Part shown: piece after piece, positions 9,564 to 25,745 of the stretch
Numbering within the stretch: the first letter of the stretch is position 1
Layout of the letters: the number at the start of each line of letters is the position of its first letter
DNA from: a virus
Lineage: Duplodnaviria; Caudoviricetes
DNA length: 64,000 bases
Virus record (IMG/VR): IMGVR_UViG_3300028591_000118
Span: 1-64,000 of that record
Reading direction: 5' to 3' (one strand)
Notes under the pieces: generated by a model
Database searches by the model: none
What the model was told of the DNA's origin: nothing
What the model saw: the letters and a program-made list of their open reading frames with translations, nothing else
Made by a program: the position numbers and the translations under genes

Positions 9564-10161
9564 TGTAATCTAATCTCCTTTCTACATTATTATATCAAAA
9601 ATTTTTCAAAATGTCAACTAGTAAGCCTTCGGCTTACTAGGTCATTGTCGTTTTAATATGTAGGAATTGCGTATGTATATTTTTAAATCGTATTTTATAA
9701 AAATGATTTTTTTATCGTATTCCCAATTTGAAAAAATATTTGGAGAGGGGACCGTGTTTTAATTTTGAAAAATTATTTGGAGAGAGTTTGGTCGAGCCCA
9801 AACCCAATTTCACTTTTTTCTAAATAAAAATCCCGAAATACACCCCCCGGAATGTTGTGTAGGAACGCTGTGTAGTCACGCATCCAGAAAAAAAGCAACC
9901 CTCCTAACAAACCCCGTCAAAATAAGACTGCTGCCAAGATAAGAGAGTAAGATACAACAAGAGAGTGAATGAGTGAGTTGATGAGACAAACAACATAACA
10001 AGAGAGAAAGATAAAGGAAAGAGATAGAATATATAAATAAATAATCAACAAGAGAAGAAAGATAATATTAATTGATGACAGATACTAATTGTGCGGGAAG
10101 TCGTTAGGTGCATCGAGCCGTTGCCGAATGGTGCAACTTCGCGCAACGGCCGGATTCGCCC

Positions 10162-10281
10162 ACCCGCATAATATCAGGGTTTTTTCATTCCACAAACCCG
10201 GTGTTTATCAGCGTTTCACGGATCCCGCAAAGAAACCCAGTATTTATGCGGGCTCGCGGATCCAGTATTTATGCGGGTTTC
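10162..10281. repeat. Four imperfect copies of AAACCCAGTATTTATGCGGGTTT (first one inverted)
   Basis: acccgcataatatcagggttt (10162), aaacccggtgtttatcagcgtttc (10194), aaacccagtatttatgcggg (10234), ccagtatttatgcgggtttc (10262). Confidence 0.75.
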
Positions 10282-10475
10282 AGCCGGTGAGTTTGTTTCT
10301 TGTAGGTGTGTATTTTTTAGGATTCTATCGAAAAAGATATATTTCTGTATTAGTGTTACATCAAAATAAAAGCAAAATCTTTTTATTTTTTTATCAAAAT
10401 AGTTGTAGACAAACGTGTTAGAATGTGATATATTATAATCAAGGAAAGGGAAATACAGAAAGAGAGGTAAAGGAT

Positions 10476-10625
10476 ATGACAAACACAAAGACTTACAGAA
10501 AAGAGTTTCAGTACAGAGGACAACAGATAAATTACTTCAACAAGGTTCGTGCCAATGCTAATGTAAAGAACGCAACAATGTACATCACAGCTGATGGTAG
10601 AAAAGTTGTAGAATACAACTACTAA
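10476..10625 (+). CDS. Small hypothetical protein
   Basis: Promoter, GAGAGG RBS and ATG at 10476. Confidence 0.65.
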   Translation: MTNTKTYRKEFQYRGQQINYFNKVRANANVKNATMYITADGRKVVEYNY

Positions 10626-10982
10626 AAAAATAAGGAGGTTAATAAAATGAAAAAATATATAGTAAGTATTTTTGATGGCTCATCTACAACAAAGTACATC
10701 ACCGAAGATGTAGATATCTACAGAGCTGAGAATAAGATAGTAAAGTATCACACAGGACTAAAAAGAGATATAATAAAAGTTGAAACGACAGAGATAAGAG
10801 GTTGAAAAATCTCTTATCTTGCGCGCGTCGCAGGCGAATCCACAGCATTCGCCAAGACGCGAATTTTGCGCTTTTGTGCAATATTGCTAAAAAATGGATC
10901 ACAATTTTGTTTATTTTGCTACTTGCATTTTATCCCGTTATGGTGTATAGTATAATCAGAAAGAGGAAAGGAGGACTTGCAA

Positions 10983-11415
10983 ATGACTAAGATGATAAAC
11001 TTCGATATGGATGGAACATTAGCAAACTTCTATGGTGTTTGAAGGTTGGTTAGAAGATTTAATGAATAAAAATGCTAAACCCTACGCACAGGCAACACCG
11101 CTTTTCAACTTCTCTTCTCTTGCAAGAGTGCTTAACAGACTTCAGAGAGAAGGTTACGAAATCTGCATTATTTCTTGGTTAGCAAAGAATTCAACAGAAA
11201 CTTTTGATAAAGAAGTTACAGAAGTTAAAAAGGCTTGGCTTGCAAAGCATCTTCCTAGTGTTAAATGGGATAGAATTACAATTGTTCCTTATGGAACACC
11301 TAAAAGCACTTGCGGTTGCGGGATCCTCTTTGATGATGAAGAACCTAATAGAAAAGAATGGGGTGAAGGTGCTTACAATGTAGAAAACATCTTAGAAATA
11401 TTGAAAAAACTTTGA
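10983..11415 (+). pseudogene. HAD-family 5'-nucleotidase-like gene split by a +1 frameshift
   Basis: MTKMINFDMDGTLANFYGV stops at TGA 11040-11042; the +1 frame continues EGWLEDL..., colinear with intact paralogue 18786-19250. Confidence 0.8.
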
Positions 11416-11484
11416 AAAAATAGTTGACAAACGTGCAAAAAAGGAATATAGTATAATTAAAGAAAGGAAAGAGAGGTAATTAAA

Positions 11485-11721
11485 ATGGCAAACAAATTTA
11501 ATGATGAATATAATGTTTTTGTAGAGCAAAAATGGCATAAAAGAAAAACTTTTTCAGAAGATGAAATTAAACTCATCAAGTCAGCAAAAAATTATCTTGA
11601 TAATTTAGTTGAAAAAATAGATAATGGAGATTATTCTATTAGCAACTGTACCTACAGTTATGAAATAACTTTTCATTTAATTGATATAGAAGAACACCCT
11701 TATTGGAAAAAAACAAATTAA
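11485..11721 (+). CDS. Hypothetical protein
   Basis: Own promoter and GAGAGG RBS. Confidence 0.7.
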   Translation: MANKFNDEYNVFVEQKWHKRKTFSEDEIKLIKSAKNYLDNLVEKIDNGDYSISNCTYSYEITFHLIDIEEHPYWKKTN

Positions 11722-11968
11722 AAGAGAGGTAACTAAAATGTGCGGGAACCACTTTCCGCACATTTGTTATGCGGCGGGCCGCTGGCGCGTTGCTTTTACA
11801 CGCCAGCGGCCGAATTTCCATTATACCACACCCAAGCACATTTTGTCAATAGTAAAAATAAATAAAAAACTAACTAAAATGATCCCAAAATTTGTGCAAT
11901 ATTTTTCTTAAAAAGGCTTGCAAAAGTCAAAAGGGTATGGTATATTATAATTACAGAGAGGGACAACG

Positions 11969-12080
11969 GAATGGCGGATACCCAATCGGTGAGATAGTTG
12001 CCAATACTTACAAAAGTAAGGGGTTATCAATACTAGGGGTTGTTAATTCTTGAAAGTAAGCACACAACGGAAACCATTCC
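11969..12080 (+). ncRNA. Putative structured small RNA or 5' leader
   Basis: Starts just after a promoter; closed by GGAATGG/CCATTCC with internal hairpins; no ORF. Confidence 0.4.
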
Positions 12081-12648
12081 TAAACTAAACAAGAGAGGTA
12101 ATTAAAATGAAGAATTATGAGGTTGCTATTTATACAGATTTATTAGAAGTTATAATTTATGTTGTTAAAGATTGTGTTAATGAAGAAAATGCTTGTCGCA
12201 GGGCATTTTCTCAATGGTATCATGGTTATGGTATTGGAAATGTTAGAGATATAGTTGTAACAGCATTATGATTACAATACTACCTTTTAATACACTTCTA
12301 CCTCCTATTGCGGCGGGCGTTGGTGTAGAATCCGACGCCCAAGACCGCAAAAAACAAGAGAAGAAGAAAAAAGAAAATGCAGAAGATATTTTTGAAAGAA
12401 TATTAGAAACTGAAATAATAAAAATATGCGGGAAGGCGTAAGTCTTCCCCTTTTTTGAGCTCGCCGCAGACCATCCGGCGCGGCGAGTTTTTCGCATTTA
12501 CCTGGATCCCGCACCTTTTTATAATCAACTTTGCAAACCAAAAAAAATTAAAAAAAATCCTAAAAAAGTGTTGACATTTATCCACGGGTGTAGTATTATA
12601 TAATCAAGGAAAGGGAAAACACCTAAAATAGAAAGAGAGGTAACTAAA

Positions 12649-12846
12649 ATGATGACACAGGCTGAAATGATTAAGTACGATATGATGGTTGATATGGGTA
12701 TCTGCACCGCAGATGAACTCAATCTTGCTTTTAACCTTATAGGAAATTGGACAGAAACAATTAATAAGATAATCTACTTCCGCACAGGTTACAGAGATTA
12801 TGAGCAATACATCCAATCTGAAATGGAAGGAGATGAGGAAGATTAA
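12649..12846 (+). CDS. Hypothetical protein
   Basis: Promoter, RBS and a terminator at 12849-12875. Confidence 0.7.
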   Translation: MMTQAEMIKYDMMVDMGICTADELNLAFNLIGNWTETINKIIYFRTGYRDYEQYIQSEMEGDEED

Positions 12847-13197
12847 AATTAGGCGGGAAGGCATTCCCGCCTATTTCTTATTTTCTATAATTTGAAAAAA
12901 TTAAAAAAATTTGATATAATATATATAGAAAATAAAAAATAAATAAAAATTAAATTCCTATAATCCTTTTCTTTTTGGCGGCACGAGTGCGGCTCCTTTT
13001 AGTCGTGCAAGTGCCGAATTTTCATTATACCACAGTTTTGCACATTTTGTCAACTGGCAATTTGCACAAAGATTTAGATCCGTGGATCCCGCAATTTGTG
13101 CAATATTTTTTATCTAAACCCTTGCAATTTTCTGTCCGTAGTGGTATTATTATTACAGAGTTAAGGAACACCACCAAGTGAAAGAGAGGTAGTTAAA

Positions 13198-13407
13198 ATG
13201 ACATTTACAAAAACAATTTCTGTAGATAATGAACATATTAAAAATTTTATTGAAGATACTGTTGATAATATGATTGAGAGTCTCTATATTTGGTTAGACG
13301 ATGGTTATAATATAAGTCCTGAAGATATTAAAAATGATGAATATCTTTATCTTCTAGAAAAACTTAGAGATGAAATAGAAATAAGAAGAAAAAAAATACT
13401 TCAGTGA
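13198..13407 (+). CDS. Hypothetical acidic protein
   Basis: GAGAGG RBS. Confidence 0.65.
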   Translation: MTFTKTISVDNEHIKNFIEDTVDNMIESLYIWLDDGYNISPEDIKNDEYLYLLEKLRDEIEIRRKKILQ

Positions 13408-13427
13408 TAGAAAGAGAGGTAGTTAAA

Positions 13428-13625
13428 ATGACAAAGGTTATAGAGTACGCTTCAGTTTCACCCGCAGTTCTTGATAGTATAGTTAGTGCTCTTGGTGTAT
13501 TTTGCACGTGGTCTGAAGTAGACGAAGATAGATTTGAATTTACTGTCTGCTCTTATGGTCAGGGGGCACCTTACCCCATGACAAAAATTCAAGAAATATT
13601 AAATAGGTATCCTGCATGTGCATAA
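13428..13625 (+). CDS. Hypothetical protein
   Basis: GAGAGG RBS before MTKVIEY. Confidence 0.6.
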   Translation: MTKVIEYASVSPAVLDSIVSALGVFCTWSEVDEDRFEFTVCSYGQGAPYPMTKIQEILNRYPACA

Positions 13626-14011
13626 CATGCAGGTCAACAAAAGGAGAATAAAATGAGTACAACGGAAATGCTTAATATCTCAGTAGCCTTAAATATACTT
13701 TGGCCTATTGTGGCAATAATTACATATTTATTTTGTTAGGCGGGAAGCGCTTATATTGATTTAGCGGGAAAAATAATTCCCGCTATTTTTGACGGCCCGC
13801 ATGCGCATCACACACCTCGCGCAAGGGCCGCATTTTGCGTATAGGCTGGTTTTTAAGTTTTTTAGATCCACATTGCGTATTGTATATATTGCATAAAAAA
13901 TCCCATTTCTTTTTGTGCAACTTTTTATTAAAAAATCCTTGCAATATATACACGGGTATGGTAACATATAATCAAGGAAAGGGAAACACCCTAGGAAGTG
14001 AGGTAATTAAG

Positions 14012-14464
14012 ATGACAAAGGAAACAATGATTAGAAATTACAGAAAATTCAGTGCGGCGGATGCTTATATCCTTGGCTTTATATATGGCGGTCAGGTCTA
14101 TATGGTTGAGGTTAAGGACATAGCGCCTCGCTATATGAAAGTTGAGCGTTGTTCTTCAAGGAATGGCGGATATAGGAAACTTCAGTTCAGACTTAATAAC
14201 GCTTATAAGGAAGAACTTATACGCAAGGGGGCAAGGGTTATAGGCACACCCGATATACTTGATGGACAGTATAACAAGGGCGTTGAGTTTGAAAGAGTTG
14301 TCTATAACGAGTTTGGTCAGACATATCGTGGCAAGGATAGCGTAGGCTTTTGGGTATCAGGTGACATAACGGTAGATAACAAGGAACTTCAGGTCAAGTT
14401 CGAGGGTGCACAGATAGTAGTAGAAAACACACTTGAGAATCTCAAGAAAAGGGTAAGGGGTTAA
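14012..14464 (+). CDS. Hypothetical protein, possible PD-(D/E)XK-like nuclease fold
   Basis: Likely start MTKETMIR behind GAGG; KGVEFE...GDI...ELQVK motif. Confidence 0.5.
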   Translation: MTKETMIRNYRKFSAADAYILGFIYGGQVYMVEVKDIAPRYMKVERCSSRNGGYRKLQFRLNNAYKEELIRKGARVIGTPDILDGQYNKGVEFERVVYNEFGQTYRGKDSVGFWVSGDITVDNKELQVKFEGAQIVVENTLENLKKRVRG

Positions 14465-14720
14465 AGCCCCCTGCCCACATAGGAGGCATAATATGAATGT
14501 AATTGAGTATATCAGAAACAGATCAGGAAGCACATACGGCAAGCGCATAAGAATTCTTGATAACTACACCCACCACAGTTTAGGACCGTGGACCTGTAAT
14601 GCGGATAGGGACATCATGGATATAAAAGTAACTGAAAAAATAATTTTTATTTTTGTAAAATAAGTGTTGACATAGCAAACATAATATGGTATAGTATTTA
14701 TAGAAAGAGAGGTAATCATT

Positions 14721-15038
14721 ATGATAAGCATAACAAGAGAAGATATGAACAAGGCAGTAGAAAATCTTCAGACAGAGCGCGGAAGGGCTTCAGTGGTAGA
14801 TTTCTTAACTGTCCTCTATGGAATTATTAGCGGAGATTATATGGTTTTAGCAGAAGAAGACCGCATCCGCATAATAAATGAATTTACAGATAGGTATGAT
14901 GAAGCCTATTGGCAGGGTTATAATGAAGCCCGAGAAGCCTATGATGGCACCTCTGATGATGATTATGAGGAGCCTGAAGATATAGATGATGATTTTGGAT
15001 ATGATGCTTATATGGGTTGTTATACATATGATTGTTAA
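14721..15038 (+). CDS. Highly acidic small protein
   Basis: D/E/Y-rich C-terminal half; own promoter. Confidence 0.7.
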   Translation: MISITREDMNKAVENLQTERGRASVVDFLTVLYGIISGDYMVLAEEDRIRIINEFTDRYDEAYWQGYNEAREAYDGTSDDDYEEPEDIDDDFGYDAYMGCYTYDC

Positions 15039-15060
15039 TTAAGAAAGGAGAATATTTTTT

Positions 15061-15336
15061 ATGTATATTAAAATTACTTGCTCAAATGGTTTTTGCGGTT
15101 GCGAAGAAGATTTTTATGAAGAAGTAAAAAATGAAGGTGAAGCAGATGACCTTACATATAATATATTAAATAATGATTATGCTTTTGCCGAGCCTGATGG
15201 AAGATTTCTTCCTGGCGCTTCCAGTTTTGATGATACTGATTATGAAGATTATGAGGAAGAATATGATGATTATGTTAATAATTTAGAAGGTTGGTGGGAA
15301 GAAATTACAGAAGAAGAATTTGAGGATAATAAATAG
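15061..15336 (+). CDS. Highly acidic small protein
   Basis: CSNGFCGC followed by a D/E-rich sequence; terminator at 15336-15366. Confidence 0.7.
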   Translation: MYIKITCSNGFCGCEEDFYEEVKNEGEADDLTYNILNNDYAFAEPDGRFLPGASSFDDTDYEDYEEEYDDYVNNLEGWWEEITEEEFEDNK

Positions 15337-15521
15337 AAGAAGGGGGTAACACCCCTTCTTTTTTTTGTGTCGGGGCGCGCACGATTGCTTTTCAACCATG
15401 CGCGCCCCTATTTTCCTGTCAAGATACAATTTGCACAATTTTTCATCTGATTTTTTATGCAATCTGCCTATTGTAATTATCCTATAATCTGATATAATTA
15501 GTATTAGAAAGAGAGGTAAGC

Positions 15522-15767
15522 ATGAAGAAATTTTTTAGAATTGAAGAGCCTTATAAGTTTGAAATGAACGATTTGCGTGCAGTAATTCAGATAATAAATG
15601 TAGTCCTAATTATGATTTTTGGTCTGTCTGTTTCATGGTTTGGACTAGCCCTTGCAATTTGTGGATTGATTAAGGATTTCACAAAAGACCGCCATATAAA
15701 TGGAATTTTAATGCACCTTGCATCCGCAATATTAAATATTTATTTTTTAACACTTCTTTACAAATAA
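15522..15767 (+). CDS. Small membrane protein
   Basis: Two to three hydrophobic segments; RBS. Confidence 0.65.
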   Translation: MKKFFRIEEPYKFEMNDLRAVIQIINVVLIMIFGLSVSWFGLALAICGLIKDFTKDRHINGILMHLASAILNIYFLTLLYK

Positions 15768-15848
15768 GTGTTGACAAATTAAAAAAATTATGTTATTATA
15801 AATATAGAAAGAAACAAAAAAGGTTTCCAAGAAAGAGAGGTATTTACA

Positions 15849-16031
15849 ATGACAAAATTGACTTATGACATTATTACTAGAACAGGTATCACCTACAATG
15901 CAGATACTTACGCTATGGCTCAGAGAATAAAGGGTGATAACCCTGGCTCTATTATCAAAAGGTGCTATTCGCCCATCCCCGAAAAGTCTAATCTCTTTGA
16001 TAAGATAAAGAGAGTAAAGACTGGAAAGTAA
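15849..16031 (+). CDS. Hypothetical protein
   Basis: Promoter, RBS and terminator. Confidence 0.6.
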   Translation: MTKLTYDIITRTGITYNADTYAMAQRIKGDNPGSIIKRCYSPIPEKSNLFDKIKRVKTGK

Positions 16032-16195
16032 TCAAAAGGTGCGGGTTTGTCCCGCACCTCTCTTTTATTTTTAAGATCGAACATCTGTTTGGTTGCACGT
16101 GCCCCCGAACAAACTTTCGATAATTATTTTTGAAAAAAGTGTTGACTTTTATAATTAGATATGTTAATATAATTACAGAAAGAGAGGTAATTAAA

Positions 16196-16387
16196 ATGGA
16201 ATACATAATTAGTACTATAGTTGAATTTGATGTAGAAGATTTAGCAGAAAAAATGTTTTATTATCTTGATGATGTAATGGATGATACTGGAAATGGTGAA
16301 AATTACAGAGATTTAACTAATGAACAGAGAAAAGATTTAGACTGTGCAATCTTAAAAAAGGCTTTAGAATTAGCAGAAAGAGAGTGA
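16196..16387 (+). CDS. Hypothetical acidic protein
   Basis: RBS before MEYIIS. Confidence 0.6.
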   Translation: MEYIISTIVEFDVEDLAEKMFYYLDDVMDDTGNGENYRDLTNEQRKDLDCAILKKALELAERE

Positions 16388-16653
16388 TTAAAATGTCTAC
16401 TAGATTTTATGTACCTTGGATACAAAGAAATGATTGGGATTCAATTCCTTATGACCTTGGTGTTTTTTCTTCTATTGAAAGAGCAGAAGAGGCTATTATT
16501 GAAGTATTAAGAAATTTTTGTCAAGAAGTATTAACTTTAGAAATTTATCAAAGTATGACAGAAGAGCCTGAATATCTCTTTGGAATACATGAATGCAACT
16601 TAAATGAATTAGGTATTTATCATGAACTTTATTCAAAACCTATGGGAGTTTAA
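16384..16653 (+). CDS. Hypothetical protein
   Basis: Coupled to the previous gene (alternative start MSTRF); terminator follows. Confidence 0.6.
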   Translation: MIKMSTRFYVPWIQRNDWDSIPYDLGVFSSIERAEEAIIEVLRNFCQEVLTLEIYQSMTEEPEYLFGIHECNLNELGIYHELYSKPMGV

Positions 16654-17001
16654 GAGGAGCCTTGGCTCCTCTTTTTATGTAAACCGACACGTGCGACACG
16701 CAATGCGTATACGCGCTCCCGCAAAATCATTTAACCAAAACCGCAAAATCTTTTTATTGCAAAATTAAAAAAAATATATTATAATAAATACATAAGATAA
16801 AGAAATAAAGAAAGCGACTTAAAAAAGAGTGGACAACCTACCTAGTCGACAAAGGAAAACCGCCCTAGTCAATTTCAAAAGTTTGAAAACTTTTTAAAAA
16901 AATTCAAAAAAAACTATTGACAATTAAATAATAAAATGATATAATAAATATATCAAATGAAACAAGTAAACAATATTTCAAAAAAGAAAGAGGTGCTTAT
17001 T

Positions 17002-17403
17002 ATGGCAAACACAGAGAACAAGGTAACTTATGTATCAGCAGTTGATTTCGCTCTTAACTACTTTGAGGGCAAGGAAGATGTACCTGCTGACATTGTAGAA
17101 AAGATGGGTGCGCTCAAGGAGAGCCTTGAAAAGAGAGCAAACGCAAAGCGTTCAAATAAGAAAGTCGAGGAGAATGACGCTCTGCGTGATGCACTTCTTG
17201 GTGCTCTTGGTACAAAGGGTGTTAGAGTTGCTGACATTATGAAGATGGATGGCTTCACAGAGTTTTCTTCACAGAAGATTTCAGCCCTCCTTTCACCTAT
17301 GGTTAAGGATGGTAGAGTAGTAAAGACCATCGACAAGAAAGTCGCTTATTTCTCACTTCCTACAGAAGTAGAGGTAGAAGTAGCGGTTGAGGTTGAGGAG
17401 TAA
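17002..17403 (+). CDS. Winged-helix-like DNA-binding protein (paralogue of 22477 and 37708)
   Basis: FSSQKISALLSPMVKDGRVVKTIDKKVAYFSL helix-wing motif. Confidence 0.65.
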   Translation: MANTENKVTYVSAVDFALNYFEGKEDVPADIVEKMGALKESLEKRANAKRSNKKVEENDALRDALLGALGTKGVRVADIMKMDGFTEFSSQKISALLSPMVKDGRVVKTIDKKVAYFSLPTEVEVEVAVEVEE

Positions 17404-17622
17404 TCCTCAACCCCTCTAAAAGAATAAAATGACGCAAGGCGAGGTATGTAAGACCTCGCCTTTTTGGCGCCGCGCTTGCGGGTTGCACCTTTTCGCAAGC
17501 GCGGCGAATTTCGCATCAGCCACCCTCCCGCACAAAATAAAAATCGAAAAAATTTTCAAAAAACCTCTTGACAATATCCCAAAATGGTAGTATAATTAAA
17601 CTATCGAAAGGAGATAAGGGGT

Positions 17623-17952
17623 ATGACAAAGGACAAATTAATTGAAAAGATTATGAAAGAAGCCGAACTTGATGGTGAGCCTTTAACAAGAGAAGAAGCA
17701 GAAGAAGTTGCGGAAATGGAAATTAAAGCCAAAGGTATCAAGGTTTATGAACAGTCAGAGAAGAAAGACCGCAAAAAGCGGGAAGTCAAGCCTGATGAAG
17801 AAAAGGTCAAGTTAATAAATCTTATTTCTGAAACTCTTTCTACTGTTGGCTTGAATACTTCCATTCTCAATCCACAGAGAGAGATAACCTTTTCTGTCAA
17901 TGGTGCGGAATACTCTTTAACTCTAATTAAGCACAGACCGCCTAAGAAATAG
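17623..17952 (+). CDS. Hypothetical protein (distant paralogue of 20915)
   Basis: Shared DEEK/SDEK helix and C-terminal beta strands. Confidence 0.65.
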   Translation: MTKDKLIEKIMKEAELDGEPLTREEAEEVAEMEIKAKGIKVYEQSEKKDRKKREVKPDEEKVKLINLISETLSTVGLNTSILNPQREITFSVNGAEYSLTLIKHRPPKK

Positions 17953-17966
17953 GCGGAAGGTGCTAG

Positions 17967-18039
17967 GTGCGGCTAGCTCAGTAGGTAGAGCACTAGACTT
18001 TTAATCTAGTTGTCATGGGTTCGAACCCCATGCCGCACA
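17967..18039 (+). tRNA. tRNA-Lys(TTT)
   Basis: Full cloverleaf; anticodon arm CTAGA-CTTTTAA-TCTAG; GGTTCGAAC T-loop. Confidence 0.92.
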
Positions 18040-18289
18040 TTTACTACCTTTAATTACCTCTTACCTTACCTCAATGGGTGACGCACGCAATGCGTCATCC
18101 GCACGTGCAACGGCAATGCGTATAAAAAAAATTTTTAATTTTTTGAAAAATATATTGACTTTATTTTTTTAATGTGATATACTTAATTTACCAAATGAAA
18201 GAGAGGAAAATTAAAAATGAAATATTTATTAGTAGATGCAGGAAATGGCTTTTGTGGTTGTAATGAAGAAAATTATGAGGTAAGATAAA

Positions 18290-18475
18290 ATGACTAACGC
18301 AGAGAAATTTCAAGAAATTTTTAATCTTCCAATAAGTGAAATGCCTAGTGACCCTTGTGATATAATAGATGAAAATATTTGTATCAATGCTGATGGATGT
18401 GAAAACTGTCCTCTCTATCATTTTTGGGAAAAAGAATTTCAAAAGTACAAAGTATCTCGCTCGTCAAGAAAATAA
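18290..18475 (+). CDS. Small Cys-rich protein
   Basis: MTNAEKF...C..C...C..C pattern. Confidence 0.6.
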   Translation: MTNAEKFQEIFNLPISEMPSDPCDIIDENICINADGCENCPLYHFWEKEFQKYKVSRSSRK

Positions 18476-18785
18476 AAAAATTTCAAAAAAATGCTTGACA
18501 ACTATTAAAAAGTATGGTATTATAATTACAGAAAGAGAGGTAATAAAAATGTTTCAACCCTATAAAATTATTTTCAAAAGTGATACAGATGAAAAAGAAT
18601 ATTTACAATATTGCTTTACTTATAATATGCCAAAAGCTATTGAAGAGATAATAGAAAAATACACAGGAGGTATAGTAATGATTATACCTTTATGTCACTC
18701 AATAAAAATTTGGAAAAAATGTAAAAACTTATTGACAATAGAAAGATAATATATTATACTATTATTAGAAAGAGAGGTAAAGCAA

Positions 18786-19250
18786 ATGGAAAATAAAACA
18801 CTTGTTTTTGATATGGATGGTACAATCGCAGACCTTTATGGTGTAGAGAATTGGCTTGAGGACTTAAGAGCCGAAAATCCTAGACCTTATGAGGTAGCTA
18901 GACCGCTTTATGATATGAATGCACTCAATGCGTTACTTGACATCTTCAAGTTACAGGGTTGGAAAATTGTAGTGACAACTTGGTTGTCAAAAGGTAGTAG
19001 CAAGGAATATGACAGACTTGTCAGAGAAGCAAAACTTGCATGGCTTGAAAAGTATAACTTCCCTTGTGATGAGGTACACCTTATAAAGTATGGAACTACA
19101 AAGGCTAATTGCACAAGAAGAAAAGGCGGTTTTCAAGTTCTTATTGATGATAATGAAATGGTCAGAAAAGGTTGGAACTTGGGTGCGGTGATTGACGCTA
19201 ATGAAAACATTATTGAAAAGTTGACAGACCTTTTAGAGCAGGTGGCTTAA
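18786..19250 (+). CDS. HAD-superfamily 5'(3')-nucleotidase-like protein
   Basis: VFDMDGT and LIDD motifs. Confidence 0.8.
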   Translation: MENKTLVFDMDGTIADLYGVENWLEDLRAENPRPYEVARPLYDMNALNALLDIFKLQGWKIVVTTWLSKGSSKEYDRLVREAKLAWLEKYNFPCDEVHLIKYGTTKANCTRRKGGFQVLIDDNEMVRKGWNLGAVIDANENIIEKLTDLLEQVA

Positions 19251-19388
19251 GCCACCCGCTCTGTGTATCGCACGTGCCGCCGGCAATGCGTATGATCAAA
19301 TTTTTTTAATTTTTTTCAAAAAATATGTTGACTTTATTTTTTTAATGTGATATACTTAATGTATCAAATGAAAGAGAGGTAATAATCC

Positions 19389-20126
19389 TTGAGTAGAAGA
19401 AAAAAATTTTTAGTAGTAGACACAGAAACCGCAAACACCATTGAGCAACCTTTACCTTATGATATAGGTTGGGCAATATGTGACAAGAATGGACATATCT
19501 ACGCAGAGCGTTCTTATGTAGTAGCAGAAGTTTTTTGTGACATGAAAGATACAATGAAAAGTGCCTATTATGCCGAGAAAATTCCTCAATATTGGGATGA
19601 TATAAAGGCAGGTAAAAGAGTGCTTGCGCCTATGTGGACTATATATAAGGCTATGAGAGCTGATATAAAAAATTATAAAGTCAAGAGTGTAGGCGCATAC
19701 AATATGGCTTTTGATAAAAGAGCATTAAATAACTTGATTAGATATGTGTCAAAATCATGGTGTAGATGGTGGTTCCCTATAGGTGTTGAGTTTTTCTGTA
19801 TCTGGAATATGGCTTGCAGTGCGGTTTTGAATAGGTCAAGTTACATTGATTTTGCTTATAAGAATGGCTTGATAAGTGAATCAGATAACATTCAGACTAG
19901 CGCAGAGTGTGCATACAAATATCTAATGAAAAATAGCGATTTTGTTGAAAATCACACAGGGTTAGAGGATGTCAAAATTGAAGTTGAGATAATGGCTTAC
20001 TGTTTCAGACAGAAAAAGAAACTTGACAAAGAAATAAATAGTGCTTGTTGGCGCAAGGTACAAAAGAAAAGAAAAGAACTTGACTTGCGGAAGGTGTTCG
20101 CTCAGGCGGACACCCTCTGCGTATGA
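19389..20126 (+). CDS. DEDDh 3'-5' exonuclease
   Basis: ExoI VVDTET, ExoII AYNMAFD, ExoIII HTGLED. Confidence 0.85.
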   Translation: MSRRKKFLVVDTETANTIEQPLPYDIGWAICDKNGHIYAERSYVVAEVFCDMKDTMKSAYYAEKIPQYWDDIKAGKRVLAPMWTIYKAMRADIKNYKVKSVGAYNMAFDKRALNNLIRYVSKSWCRWWFPIGVEFFCIWNMACSAVLNRSSYIDFAYKNGLISESDNIQTSAECAYKYLMKNSDFVENHTGLEDVKIEVEIMAYCFRQKKKLDKEINSACWRKVQKKRKELDLRKVFAQADTLCV

Positions 20127-20252
20127 CCGGAGCGCACGTGCGGGGATACGCAATGCGTACAACCGCACTTTTTTAATTTTTTGTAATCTTTCTATTGACA
20201 TTTATAAAAAAATATAATATAATAATATTAAAGAAAGAGAGGTAATCTAGTT

Positions 20253-20774
20253 ATGGCAAAAGTAAAAGGTATTAAAAAGTTAAACAAGGCTATTCTTGAA
20301 CAGTTTGCACAGTTTGGTATTGAAAAGACAGTAGTCACAGATGAATTTTCTTATATCTATGCTAAAAATAAAATTACTTACAAAATAACAGAGGATGACC
20401 TTGAAGATAAGTTATTCTGCGAACATGTTAAAGAGCGTTTTGGGTATGAGGTCAAGTATCCTTTTATCATGTTTATGTTGCATGAAGTAGGTCATCATTT
20501 GAATAATGATTGTATTGATGATACATTAGAAGATTTTTGCGCTAGAGAAAAAGAGCGCATTGAAGAAGAAATGATTGAAGCATTAGCCACAGATGAAGTT
20601 AAAAAGTTAGAATGGCAGTATTTCACCTTGCCTGATGAAATCATGGCAACCGCATGGGCAGTGGATTGGGCTAGAGAACACCCCACAGAGATTGAAGAAA
20701 TGTGGAACGCAATCGAAAAGGCTTTTCATAAGTTTTACGCAAAAAATCTTGATATGGCAAGTCTTATAAACTAG
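20253..20774 (+). CDS. HEXXH zinc-metallopeptidase-like protein
   Basis: LHEVGHH followed by a downstream E..A..WA motif. Confidence 0.65.
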   Translation: MAKVKGIKKLNKAILEQFAQFGIEKTVVTDEFSYIYAKNKITYKITEDDLEDKLFCEHVKERFGYEVKYPFIMFMLHEVGHHLNNDCIDDTLEDFCAREKERIEEEMIEALATDEVKKLEWQYFTLPDEIMATAWAVDWAREHPTEIEEMWNAIEKAFHKFYAKNLDMASLIN

Positions 20775-20914
20775 GCGGAAGGCGAACATCGAACAGGTGT
20801 TCGCCGCACGTGGCGCCCGCTCGCGTATAAAAATATTTTTGAATTTCTAAAATAAAAGTGTTGACAAGTTACTATTTATGTGATAATATTAGTATAGAAA
20901 GAGAGGTAGTTAAA

Positions 20915-21331
20915 ATGCTAGTTAAAACAAAGAATGGCTCATCAGTGGCTATCCCCGATAATGAAATAGATAGACTAGTTGAAAGTCTTGACATTTCTAT
21001 TGCTGATGCTATTGACCTTTACCTTGAAGACCATGGTATGCAGAAAAATGAAGAACAGGAAGAGTTAGACAAGAAAGCCAAGAAAGAAGGTTTTAAGTTG
21101 ACTAACTCAAGTGCAGACACAGACAAGCGCAAAAAAGGCGCACCTAGAACTGTTAATGTTTCAGATGAAAAAAAGGAACTTTTTGATAGTATTTTGTCAA
21201 ATTTGACTAGATGTGTGCCAGTTGAGGCTGAAAATATCACAGTTTTGAAAGAAAATAAACTAATTGAGGTCAAAATTGGTGAAAAAACTTTCAAAATTGA
21301 TGTCATTGAAAGCAGAAATAAAAAGAAATGA
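20915..21331 (+). CDS. Hypothetical protein (paralogue of 17623)
   Basis: RBS before MLVKTK. Confidence 0.65.
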   Translation: MLVKTKNGSSVAIPDNEIDRLVESLDISIADAIDLYLEDHGMQKNEEQEELDKKAKKEGFKLTNSSADTDKRKKGAPRTVNVSDEKKELFDSILSNLTRCVPVEAENITVLKENKLIEVKIGEKTFKIDVIESRNKKK

Positions 21332-21492
21332 TAATTTTTGTGCGAATTTTCACATTTTTTGTGAATTTTCGCACAATTTAACCCGCACGTGACATCCGCA
21401 CCGCGTATTTTATTAAAAAATTAAAAAAAATTTTCAAAAACTATTGACTTTCATTCATTCTTTTGTTATAATTATATACAGAAAGAGAGGTA

Positions 21493-21681
21493 ATGAAGAT
21501 GCCAACAGAACAAGAGATAAGAGAAAGAATAAATGATTTATCTGAAAAGTGGTATGATATAATCACAGAGTTATGTGCAAAAGCCTATGTAGATGGCTTT
21601 TCAGAGGGAGTTAAAAATGGACAAGAGGACAATGACCAAGAAAGCTTGGGTAGAATTGCAGAAAAGTCACAGAGTGACTAA
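21493..21681 (+). CDS. Hypothetical protein
   Basis: Promoter and RBS. Confidence 0.55.
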   Translation: MKMPTEQEIRERINDLSEKWYDIITELCAKAYVDGFSEGVKNGQEDNDQESLGRIAEKSQSD

Positions 21682-21761
21682 TCAAATGAATACAGGAACT
21701 AGGACAATGAAGTCCGCAAAATATCCTACAAGACAAGAGAGAAAGAAAGAGGCGGCAAATT

Positions 21762-22010
21762 ATGAATGAAAAGAAAATGCTTGAAATGAATATTGCAGGT
21801 GGGATGGATGCTTATGTGCGGGAAGTGATAGGTGATGATGACATCACTGACTATTGGAATATGTGCGGTGTACCGGATGCGTGTGATGAAGAGATGCTAG
21901 AAGAAATAATTGAAACACCTCTTTGTTTCAGAAATATCTGCGCCGCTTTTGCAAGGTGTTTAGATCTTGAAATAGAAAATGAATATTATGAAGATGATGG
22001 TAATTATTAA
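21762..22010 (+). CDS. Hypothetical acidic protein
   Basis: RBS; D/E-rich. Confidence 0.6.
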   Translation: MNEKKMLEMNIAGGMDAYVREVIGDDDITDYWNMCGVPDACDEEMLEEIIETPLCFRNICAAFARCLDLEIENEYYEDDGNY

Positions 22011-22476
22011 AGGCGGGACCCGCAATGCGGGTCTTGCACGTGGCACGCAATGCGTACACCGACGCCCGCGCAAAATTGTGCTATTAAAAATCAAAATGTT
22101 TTTATTGATTTTTATAAAAATATATATTATAATATATACATAAGATAAAGGAAATGAAAAACAGTTTGAGCAAATGGCGCTTTTCCTTGAACAGCCCGAA
22201 ATCGTATGTTTGGTTCAACAAATAAAAAATAAAAAAAGTTGTTGACATTTTCAAAATCTTATGATATAATAAATATAAAGTTAAGGGATTTGAGTTTGAC
22301 AAGGGGATTGGCAGAAACAGATCCTAGGCAGGAAACAGACACACTCTTATCCGCTCGAAATTGAAAAAAGTTGCAAATTTTTTCAAAAATCCCTTGACTT
22401 TATAAAAAAGAAATGATATAATAAATATATCAAAGGTAACCAATAAAAATTTTATTTAAAGAAAGAGGTGCTTATT

Positions 22477-22851
22477 ATGGCAGACGCAACAGTTAAGATG
22501 ACACAGAAGGATTTTTTCAATGAGATTATCGCACTCGCTACAGAGAATGGTAGAGAGGACATTGTAGAGTTCGCAAAGGGTAGAATTGCTATTCTTGAGA
22601 AGAAGAAGAGTTCTAGCAAGCCTAGTGCAAAGCAGGAAGAGAATGAGGTTATCAAGGCAGACATTATTGAGTGGCTTGCCGATAATGGTGGCGTAACTGT
22701 ATCTGATATGCTTAAGGTCGAGAAGTTTGCAGACTACTCTTCACAGAAGATGTCAGCACTCCTTAAGCAGTTGGTTGACGCTGGCAAGGTTGTTAAGACT
22801 ATGGACAAGAAGAGAGCACTCTTCTCAGTCGCCGAGGTAGTGGAAGAGTAA
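22477..22851 (+). CDS. Winged-helix-like DNA-binding protein (paralogue of 17002)
   Basis: YSSQKMSALLKQLVDAGKVVKTMDKKRALFS; same RBS context and related terminator as 17002. Confidence 0.65.
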   Translation: MADATVKMTQKDFFNEIIALATENGREDIVEFAKGRIAILEKKKSSSKPSAKQEENEVIKADIIEWLADNGGVTVSDMLKVEKFADYSSQKMSALLKQLVDAGKVVKTMDKKRALFSVAEVVEE

Positions 22852-23033
22852 TCTTCCACACCTAGTTCAAAGGGCAAGGTATGAAGACCTTGCCCTAATT
22901 TGTACCTTTCACTATACGCAATGCGTGTCACACGTGTAAATACGCAATGCGTATTCTCGCTAAAAAAATAAAAAAAGTGTTGACAAATAAAAATGAATAT
23001 GATATATTATATATAGAAAGAGAGGTAAATAAA

Positions 23034-23270
23034 ATGTTTAATGATTATGATGTGATTGAAATTAAGGTAAAGGATTTTGTTAATGAAGAATTAAGTGACG
23101 CATTAAAGTATAATACCCTTGAGGATGCTCGCAAGTGTCGCGCAATTGCGTATGGTGCGGTGCAGTTTGCAATCAATAATCTTTTTCCTTGTTATAATGA
23201 TGACCTTGCTAATTGGTGGGAAGATGAAGCATACCCTAAATTTACAGAAAAATTTGGAATGAGGTTTTAA
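23034..23270 (+). CDS. Hypothetical protein
   Basis: RBS before MFNDYD. Confidence 0.6.
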   Translation: MFNDYDVIEIKVKDFVNEELSDALKYNTLEDARKCRAIAYGAVQFAINNLFPCYNDDLANWWEDEAYPKFTEKFGMRF

Positions 23271-23272
23271 TT

Positions 23273-23500
23273 ATGATAAATGTATATATGAAAGATGATG
23301 ACTATATTTGCGAACTTTGGGGTGCAAGCACCAAGCACCCTGATAGTGTTTTCAAAATGTCACATTTCAAAATAAATGAATATGTAGATAAAAAGTATCA
23401 AGTATTTCAGTGGTTGCTTGAGTGTGCTAGTAAATTAAGTTGGCCATTCCACGCAAAAGAACTAACTGAATATGCTCTTAAACATTGGTATAATTGGTAA
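23273..23500 (+). CDS. Hypothetical protein
   Basis: GAGG RBS; operonic. Confidence 0.55.
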   Translation: MINVYMKDDDYICELWGASTKHPDSVFKMSHFKINEYVDKKYQVFQWLLECASKLSWPFHAKELTEYALKHWYNW

Positions 23501-23516
23501 AAGAAAGGAGAATAAT

Positions 23517-23729
23517 ATGTTTAAACATGAAATTGCAGTAGATAATTTTGCAGATGCTGAAACTTTGTTAGAAGTACTTATCAATAATGGTTATGTAGTA
23601 TTATTGAGCAAGGAAGAAAAATTATGGATAATAAATTATATCTGGTCAGAAAATAATGCTGATCGGAATGATGTTGTCTTTATGAGTAGGGAGGAATATG
23701 AAGATGAAATTTTCCGCGGGGATGAATAA
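23517..23729 (+). CDS. Hypothetical protein
   Basis: AGGAG RBS before MFKHEI. Confidence 0.6.
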   Translation: MFKHEIAVDNFADAETLLEVLINNGYVVLLSKEEKLWIINYIWSENNADRNDVVFMSREEYEDEIFRGDE

Positions 23730-23760
23730 TCTCCGCATTTTTTATGTGGGAATGGGTGAT

Positions 23761-23809
23761 GTTATGTAAACCGGCACGTAGGTTTACATAACTCTATGTT
23801 ATGTAAACC
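23761..23809. repeat. Three copies of GTTATGTAAACC (direct, inverted, direct)
   Basis: 23761-23772, 23781-23792 (inverted), 23798-23809. Confidence 0.8.
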
Positions 23810-24264
23810 TTTTTGGCGGCGCGCAGGCGAGCCAGGTCTCGCCGAGGAAAGCCGAATTCCACTCCCAACACACCATACGGCTTTTTTTGCTGGTTGTTTG
23901 ATCTTCGTCTCATAGCGCCCCGGATCCCGAAATGTTTGATCATAGGGCGGTGCGTATAGCGGCAGCAGGCCAGGTTAATTATCTCCGGAGAGCCTTTAGG
24001 CTTCCTGCCCTTGACTTTTAAAAAATTTTATGTTATAATATAAAAAAAACCTAAAATTCTTCCGCATCCTTCAAATTTAAGATCTTTTCTTCCAAATGAT
24101 AAAATATTCGTCCGACTATTTTTGATTGAACAAGAGAGGACAAGAAAGCTCTTCTCGTGGATGAAAATCAGTCTTTCCGCCACTCAATTTCCGCAGGCTT
24201 GAAAATTATAAAATTTTATGATATAATATATATATAAAATAAAGAAAGGAGAATATTTTTATAT

Positions 24265-24540: not shown

Positions 24541-24665
24541 TCAACAATAGAGAGAATAGAGGTGCGGGAAGTACCTCTATTTTAATATATAATTATATAA
24601 CGGGTGCGGGAAGGATAAGGATAAAATATAAGGGAAGATGGGATTGGTCCAGGTGCACCACAACT

Positions 24666-24714
24666 CACCCATTTACCCATTTACCTATTTACCTATTTAG
24701 CTCATTCACCCATT
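24666..24714 (+). repeat. Tandem 8-mer repeat (Y)ACC(Y)ATT
   Basis: cacccatt tacccatt tacctatt tacctatt tagctcatt cacccatt. Confidence 0.75.
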
Positions 24715-24803
24715 CCTCTGCCTACTATTTCTATCTCCTATTCATCCTAACCTACTTCTTTTATTATTCCATTCTCTAGCTTACTAATAAACCTAATAAT
24801 TTA

Positions 24804-25328: not shown

Positions 25329-25388
25329 TTAACTTCATTATCCGGGGCCCCAATAAGGAGTACAGAGCGAAGCTCTGTGCTCCGCAAG

Positions 25389-25745
25389 TCTGTATATGAT
25401 TCTGTACTTTGTACAGAATCTGTACAGACAGATTTACTATTATATTAGTATCTGTCTGTATCTGTCTGTCTGTATTTCTGTACAGATCTGTATTTCTGTA
25501 TTTTTCTGTCTGTTTTTTCTATCTAAATCTGTACAGATTTTATTATTTTCTGTATAAAATCTTAAAATTCGAATATAGCTCCTTCTATTTTTTTCTGTAT
25601 AGATTCTGTCTTTAAATCTTTATCTTTCTGTATTTTCTGTACAGAATCTGTATTTTTCTGTACCTTCTGTACAGATTTTTCTTTTTTTTGTATAATATTT
25701 TCTGTACAGATTTGTACAGATTCTGTATTTTCTGTATTTTTCTGT
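25389..25745. repeat. Iteron-like TCTGTA/TCTGTACAGA repeat field, candidate replication origin
   Basis: Perfect palindrome TCTGTACAGA at 25419, 25477, 25528, 25636, 25666 and 25701 plus many TCTGTA/TCTGTC half-sites; overlaps the 3' end of 25562-26140. Confidence 0.75.

Follow-up and report, generated by a model that had tools for sequence, protein, structure and literature searches.

We analysed a 64,000-nucleotide stretch of viral DNA (the window), taken from the start of one virus record of 122,314 bp (IMG/VR IMGVR_UViG_3300028591_000118; Duplodnaviria, Caudoviricetes) estimated to be 78% complete, and focused on a set of GC-rich hairpins that lie between its early genes. The phage is AT-rich (G+C of the window about 33%). 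The part at 0.2-9.6 kb is taken up by genes for the head (portal, terminase), read leftward, and by a gene resembling a phage sigma factor, and about 35 small rightward genes are found at about 10.4-24.5 kb, nearly each one or two of them with its own sigma-70-type promoter, strong ribosome-binding site (RBS) and terminator, an arrangement that matches a host-takeover early region. A unit formed by a stem-loop and an early host-type promoter recurs between these small open reading frames (ORFs), with nine copies across 10.1-17.6 kb and at 23.8 kb. The GC hairpin of such a junction abuts the T-run of an upstream terminator on one side and, on the other, the -10 element, or its remains, of a promoter that points back towards the preceding genes (the backward promoter).

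The preliminary description of this DNA had listed nine intergenic GC-rich inverted repeats as one family, and all nine were found where it had placed them. Eight fold far better than shuffled sequences (-16.8 to -28.2 kcal/mol, z scores of -3.7 to -5.5, with 0 to 1 of 200 shuffles equal). They are hairpin 1 at 10117-10150 (-18.3 kcal/mol, z -3.7), at the left edge of the early region without an upstream gene or an intact backward promoter; hairpin 2 at 10824-10861 (-18.9 kcal/mol, z -5.4), which has a two-tier stem and a CGAATTTT tail and is the only strong stem-loop downstream of the operon at 10476-10805; hairpin 3 at 11777-11811 (-26.6 kcal/mol, z -5.5); hairpin 4 at 12460-12487 (-16.8 kcal/mol, z -3.7), followed by five T; hairpin 5 at 12979-13016, two-tier and with three G-T wobbles in the inner stem; hairpin 6 at 13793-13830 (-18.8 kcal/mol, z -3.9); hairpin 7 at 15372-15408 (-22.4 kcal/mol, z -5.4); and hairpin 8 at 17468-17506 (-28.2 kcal/mol, z -5.1). 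Hairpin 9 at 23817-23854 is weak (z -1.0; 33 of 200 shuffles fold as well) and is treated below as part of a separate element. A sliding fold of the whole genome added one strong member that had been missed, an extra (tenth) GC hairpin at 12307-12350 (-25 kcal/mol) that lacks the junction flanks. The concentration of these structures in the early region is marked, as seven of the ten genome-wide hairpins with at least nine G:C pairs fall in 10.1-17.5 kb, which is 6% of the 122-kb genome.

The window copies are 28-44 nt long and differ widely in stem sequence and loop. Their stems are G+C-rich and 8-15 bp long, the loops or inner parts measure 6-16 nt, and several copies are two-tier. The details of form noted earlier were also recovered: internal loops or bulges are present at 10824, 12979, 13793 and 23817, five copies end in CGAATT (10824, 11777, 12979, 17468 and 23817) and three in a T-rich tail (12460, 13793 and 15372), and the words TTGC and CTTTT are found repeatedly, in four or five of the loops. 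Outer CGGC...GCCG ends, here placed around an inserted inner stem, are kept in the window only at 12979, 13793 and 23817.

To compare these elements we turned to relatives of the phage. A DNA search of the early region against cultured phages gave no related match, and the portal protein is the sole, distant link to Phass-1 and to large Enterococcus and Bacillus phages; in IMG/VR, at least 141 contigs, mainly from rumen and gut samples, carry a terminase 65-88% identical. Early regions were compared in five large relatives (G001-G005; loci L081-L085), and the others were read from their terminase loci. Early genes are nearly all different between relatives, whereas the junctions are conserved. 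Direct alignment of the early region to the relatives failed apart from promoter/operator pieces, so that positional orthology could be assessed only for hairpin 5 (in locus L001) and hairpin 9.

The conservation of base pairing was analysed in an IMG/VR scan whose query held the backward promoter and only the 5' half of the commonest stem, with the fifth position left free. The scan matched 55 stretches, on contigs of 12 to 402 kb, with 58 distinct sites. An exact closing half follows within 30 nt in 41 of the 58, and in all 41 closed sites the free position is met by its Watson-Crick complement (16 G-C, 15 C-G, 9 T-A and 1 A-T). A spacer of 11 nt gives a fixed 27-nt hairpin in 35 of the 41, so the common form in relatives is CGGCNCGC - 11 nt - GCGN'GCCG, a form that the copies of the window do not take. 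When all sites were read without gaps, each of the eight stem positions paired in 78-90% of sites, against 27-40% in a register slid by 1-3 nt. Compensatory changes were also detected between individual copies: G002 and G003 differ by a T-A to A-T double change in one stem, two copies in L005 differ by a G-C to C-G swap, and the L001 ortholog of hairpin 5 shows an A-T to G-C change in the outer stem, with Watson-Crick pairs at the three places where hairpin 5 has G-T wobbles. These data confirm the earlier observation that the stems differ and still pair, and the compensatory changes, within and between phages, agree with its proposal of a structure-recognised site. They show that pairing is maintained and sequence is not: selection acts on base pairing in the hairpin.

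The same promoter and half-stem pattern was looked for in prokaryotic assemblies, where it matched almost solely metagenome bins of gut and rumen Clostridia, with 15 of 25 sites closed exactly. These matches are probably binned phage contigs. The single match in an isolate genome, a Ruminococcus contig that might have linked the pattern to a cultured host, was not a closed hairpin. The module occurs in large Firmicutes phages of gut and rumen that belong to dozens of lineages.

As palindromes, the stems are symmetric and almost perfect (695 Watson-Crick pairs, 17 G-T, 14 A-C and 24 other), and their folding energies show no strand preference, with 19 units more stable in the sense of the promoter and 20 in the opposite sense. 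We sought an excess of G-U over A-C pairs in the stems as a sign of the transcribed strand and found none; a control set of ordinary terminators displayed a merely mild G-U excess. Given their symmetry and the lack of a strand preference in energy, the hairpins can fold in RNA of either direction. The exception is hairpin 5, which folds well only as + strand RNA (-22.3 kcal/mol, z -4.1, against -12.6 kcal/mol, z -1.3, on the - strand).

In the relatives, the order along the + strand is GC hairpin, a short A/T stretch, the reverse complement of a TG-extended -10, and the -35. This is a consensus sigma-A promoter that has no gene, is directed against the early genes and has its -10 ending 3-9 nt from the stem. 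The -35 is present in 48 of 49 promoter-hairpin units in one census, G005 has a backward promoter at nearly every GC hairpin, and of the 1232 distinct consensus promoters in all fetched loci, 207 lead directly into a GC hairpin and not into a leader and gene. In G002, G003 and L005 a forward promoter also ends a few nt before the hairpin, which thus lies between two converging consensus promoters.

The backward promoter is intact in the window only at hairpins 3 and 5, in line with the two leftward promoters mentioned in the preliminary description. The first, at 11820-11849 (- strand), has a perfect -35, an 18-nt spacer and a TG-extended perfect -10 (12/12), and its -10 ends 8 nt from hairpin 3, which places the expected start at the foot of the stem. 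Its predicted transcript of about 83 nt would consist of the GC hairpin, a short linker, the reversed ordinary terminator and a T-run; as a two-hairpin RNA (11733-11815, - strand) it is predicted to fold at -44.5 kcal/mol (z -6.3). The second, at 13024-13053 (- strand; 12/12 consensus with TG extension), is predicted to give a transcript that would extend to a two-way terminator at 12850-12873. We aligned the 95 nt downstream of each hairpin and found that the sequence after hairpin 8 (17507-17540, - strand) aligns with 11812-11849 and 13017-13053 as a decayed backward promoter with both hexamers destroyed; the -10 and -35 hexamers are likewise destroyed after hairpins 4 and 6, and only a -35-like remnant is left after hairpin 7. 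The hairpins are all intact despite this decay, so hairpin and counter-promoter are functionally separable, and this survival of the hairpin is the point that the window adds to the picture from the relatives.

The alignment also revealed that all hairpins but the extra one at 12307 share their tail, a block that matches the spacer of the promoter, and the word ATCCCRAAAT about 80 nt downstream. The CGAATTT tail is simply the DNA that separates the stem from the backward -10. The conserved word stands with an operator-like TTGTGCAA just upstream of the next forward promoter (for example at 11882-11900, + strand), and the sharing of both at this distance shows the junctions to be homologous units. 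One junction of G002 (L081 6922-6975) carries three perfect DnaA-box-like nonamers in place of the usual operator words.

On the other side of the hairpin, four junctions have a separate ordinary terminator whose T-run is good and that precedes the hairpin by about 10 nt at most, namely 12430-12449, directly before hairpin 4, 13762-13785 before hairpin 6, 15335-15362 before hairpin 7 and 17436-17462 before hairpin 8 (all + strand). Hairpin 3 is preceded by a terminator with a weaker T-run at 11738-11763 that can act in both directions (T-run on the +, TTTTAG on the - strand), and the terminators lie farther upstream of hairpins 5 and 9. The position of most hairpins downstream of a separate terminator, as proposed in the preliminary description, was thus verified, and its statement that they are not simply the terminators was fair: a consensus terminator scan called the neighbouring ordinary terminators and none of the GC hairpins. 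On the + strand, at least 5 T occur in the 8-nt window starting 0-2 nt past the stem in four of the ten copies (12460, 12979, 13793 and 15372) and 0-4 T in the rest; on the - strand none of the ten has a T-run tail. Because of the poor U-tracts in six of the ten copies, and of their absence on the - strand, most copies alone are probably not canonical terminators in either direction; their loops or inner parts of 6-16 nt compare with a loop of about 3-8 nt in the canonical intrinsic type. Two other functions were considered for the hairpins and rejected. An RNase III processing site of the type found in T7 and SP82 early mRNA is not supported, since the stems are 8-15 bp long and not about two helical turns within a polycistronic transcript, and are placed downstream of the terminators and thus outside the main transcripts; loops resembling a Shine-Dalgarno or anti-Shine-Dalgarno sequence are present in few copies and are not general.

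Hairpin 9 aligns with an element at the right boundary of the early region that occupies the same place in G001-G005, with a mean column identity of 59%. This right-boundary element comprises the hairpin and, after it (23855-23935; L081 14270-14340), a run of seven T and then the word TCCCGAAAT; a consensus promoter is aimed directly at the element in G002 and G004. Hairpin 9 is a different element from hairpins 1-8.

These observations can be brought together if the hairpin is the stem-loop of a junction unit of about 130 nt that closes each early transcription unit, in the order ordinary terminator, GC hairpin, gene-less backward sigma-A promoter, operator region and next forward promoter. 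On the basis of sequence comparison, such a junction may well work as a transcription boundary. RNA polymerase escaping the first terminator would meet a second, very stable hairpin as a second stop and, where the backward promoter is live, would run head-on, at a fixed place, into a polymerase bound or starting 30-40 nt ahead; the hairpin would also cap the 5' end of the short backward RNA. Both components of this scheme have precedents: in E. coli, the point of bidirectional termination is set by converging polymerases and the stem-loop of the nascent RNA (10.1101/2022.10.23.513370), and an antisense promoter placed after a terminator tunes expression of the upstream gene, with repression scaling with promoter strength (PMC4731013). 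As most backward promoters are decayed in this phage, its hairpins would act mainly as back-up stops. Several observations weigh against a boundary function. The U-tracts are poor in six of ten copies and missing on the - strand, G002 and G003 have a forward promoter that likewise points into the hairpin, which would be strange if this were a terminator, and a simple back-up stop would need neither the fixed 27-nt geometry nor the perfect two-strand symmetry. In addition, the T-run of the upstream terminator lies directly beside the hairpin in only about one-fifth to one-third of the units in relatives; a tight terminator-to-promoter spacing was for this reason discarded as a universal rule.

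Alternatively, the RNA itself could be the product, with the backward promoters making abundant short RNAs whose 5' end is shielded by the GC hairpin and that serve as cis-antisense or decoy RNAs, the main alternative, which we regard as less likely from the sequences at hand. Such RNAs would overlap the 3' end of the preceding early mRNA and so act, in the manner of lambda oop RNA, in early-gene shut-off or stability, and the promoterless hairpins of the window would be relics. The quality of the backward promoters speaks for this, as they are among the best consensus matches of the region (12/12 with TG, and a -35 in nearly all units of the census), are conserved over many lineages and, with 3-9 nt from -10 to stem, would start transcription at the stem foot, as does the stability of the two-hairpin RNA predicted at 11733-11815. 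The preliminary description had likewise named small hairpin RNAs from leftward promoters, and of its suggestions this is the one closest to the data, the link between backward promoter and hairpin being the most conserved feature in relatives; with only two promoters intact here and hairpins persisting without them, it holds less well for this phage. Moreover, hairpin 5, whose promoter is intact, folds well only on the opposite strand, the backward RNA lacks a defined terminator in most relatives, and the hairpins vary in sequence and loop, which gives no sign of a common trans target. The promoterless hairpins and the plus-only fold of hairpin 5 tilt the balance, for this phage, towards a boundary over an antisense RNA. 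It is unlikely that the hairpin is instead recognised, on nascent RNA or on DNA, by a protein of the phage or host. Candidates would be an antiterminator, pause factor or processing nuclease, or a signal halting DNA entry, and recognition would rest on the 27-nt form with its conserved CGGC...GCCG ends. The fixed length and the conservation of the outer stem letters in many phages would fit, and at 16-23 kb the post-terminator position is held by two short palindromic operator-like words; however, binding by a symmetric DNA-binding dimer would not call for the covariation seen at the free stem position, the window copies vary in length (28-44 nt), stem sequence and loop, and no candidate protein was identified. 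Loops of 9-12 nt also make cruciform extrusion in duplex DNA unlikely. Signals for staged DNA entry, another suggestion of the preliminary description, gain no support from these data.

The preliminary description had further offered attC-like sites at which cassettes are shuffled, and it is highly improbable that the hairpins are attC- or REP-type (repetitive extragenic palindromic) sites at which a site-specific or HUH recombinase exchanges early cassettes. They are extragenic GC-rich palindromes of variable sequence at cassette boundaries, and early-gene content is very different among relatives, as would fit such sites. Nevertheless, neither the tyrosine recombinase family PF00589 (positive in 14 of 14 control genomes) nor the Y1 HUH transposase family PF01797 (RAYT) had a match in the 122-kb record, which is estimated to be 78% complete; controls were positive. 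Each cassette has its own sigma-70-type promoter and RBS, unlike the promoterless cassettes of integrons, the stems are symmetric, whereas in attC an asymmetric stem with extrahelical bases marks the strand that recombines, the bulges of the window copies are not position-conserved, and conserved end boxes of the attC type are absent. We also mapped the breakpoints of several gene replacements in one genome pair, G002 and G003, which are about 93% identical: three fall at an RBS or start codon, two in or just before a promoter, one at an ordinary terminator and none at a GC hairpin, contrary to the expectation that they would map to the hairpins. In the window, at 11722-11763, a perfect RBS and ATG run directly into the terminator hairpin with no gene between them, which is probably the scar of a cassette deletion through exchange between regulatory sequences; this orphan RBS fused to a terminator resembles the outcome of homologous exchange and also argues against recombination at the hairpins. 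Gene swaps here thus appear to result from homologous exchange in conserved regulatory DNA and not from site-specific recombination at a folded site.

Phage early regions are where host-takeover and anti-defence genes are traded, and how densely packed, very strongly promoted mini-operons stay independent is poorly understood outside T4, T7 and SPO1. If a terminator, a covarying hairpin and a gene-less counter-promoter together make up a conserved boundary, nature would offer here a case of insulation based on collision or antisense RNA, and the junction unit would be a ready-made part for synthetic biology in Firmicutes. We tentatively hold it possible that backward promoter and fixed-geometry GC hairpin form a dedicated device new to the literature, either a polymerase "parking" promoter (a head-on roadblock) or a source of short phage RNAs capped by a 5' hairpin. 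If so, a parking promoter would make each early cassette leak-proof through a programmed roadblock, and capped RNAs would have a function of their own, for example in early-mRNA shut-off or as decoys.

Other features of the early region were recorded in the course of the analysis. Between 16090 and 22960, CACGTG and a 13-nt palindrome centred on GCAATGC replace the GC hairpin after each terminator, which suggests two early zones under different regulation. A non-coding segment at 9715-9848, which separates the leftward sigma-factor operon from the early region, is conserved at 70-84% identity in five relatives with early genes that otherwise do not align. The early region is flanked by a purine-rich repetitive tract on the left (9900-10070) and a pyrimidine-rich one on the right (24650-24800), both adjoining the word GCGGGAAG; these tracts may be the borders of a terminal repeat or module. 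GCGGGAAG occurs 46 times in the whole genome, frequently as the 5' arm of ordinary terminators, and its strand tracks the direction of transcription in the first 25 kb. At 25380-25740, dense CTGTACAGA-type repeats lie upstream of, and within the end of, a leftward gene, an array that looks like iterons or an origin.

Among the early genes, one of the HAD-type nucleotidase-like kind (10984-11415) has a T-run near 11038 at which a +1 frameshift divides it, its N-terminal 19 codons stopping at TGA and the remainder continuing in the next frame, and an intact paralog is located at 18786-19250. The frameshift may stem from an assembly error, mark a pseudogene or reflect programmed shifting. ORF-less stretches driven by promoters were detected at 11950-12090, 16790-16880 and 22140-22370; the first is a 140-nt leader ahead of gene 12107, the remaining ones make up short units, two or three in number, and 16688-16813 is 78% similar to 22037-22161. 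An Rfam search of 9.5-25 kb (E up to 1) returned a tRNA and otherwise chance-level matches only, and the ORF-less stretches, which have no Rfam match, are possible small RNAs or leaders.

We compared the junctions with known systems. REP sequences and integron attC sites are also extragenic imperfect palindromes that keep structure rather than sequence; the junctions differ from them in that no RAYT or integrase gene was found, the palindromes have no conserved head or end boxes, the cassettes bear promoters and the breakpoints lie elsewhere. In lambda, oop, one of the cis-antisense RNAs that overlap a 3' end, is a short constitutive RNA made against the 3' end of an early gene and ending at a hairpin terminator. 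It comes from a single locus with a known target, cII, whereas the backward RNAs predicted here would come from many copies with different sequences and carry a 5' hairpin cap. At the bidirectional terminators of convergent E. coli genes, where head-on collision is programmed (Wang, Watters, Ju, Liu; 10.1101/2022.10.23.513370), transcription ends at a place defined by the meeting polymerases and by a stem-loop in the nascent RNA, as proposed here, but the polymerases come from real convergent genes, and here one would come from a gene-less promoter 30-40 nt from the stop point. The part of Brophy and Voigt 2016, in which a terminator is likewise followed by a promoter pointing back at the gene, acts on the upstream gene through polymerase collision and antisense RNA (PMC4731013). 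It is a synthetic construct whose antisense start bears no hairpin, whereas the backward transcript here would open with a GC hairpin and, in the window, meet a two-way terminator at once.

In layout, the junctions also resemble the promoter-early stem-loop (PeSL) cassettes of T4-type myoviruses, in which gene swaps between close relatives use conserved regulatory sequences (PMC2839356; PMC4122927). In both systems, a short unit of terminator or stem-loop and early host-type promoter is repeated between small accessory early genes in plastic regions; in the one pair G002 and G003, the gene replacements have their breakpoints at the RBS, promoter or ordinary terminator of the junctions, outside the GC hairpin. 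The PeSL cassettes belong to an unrelated phage lineage and host phylum, and their descriptions include no backward promoter. The junctions studied here contain two stem-loops, an ordinary terminator and a very GC-rich hairpin, and a gene-less backward promoter that starts at the hairpin, and they are a new variant of the promoter/terminator cassettes of the published literature.

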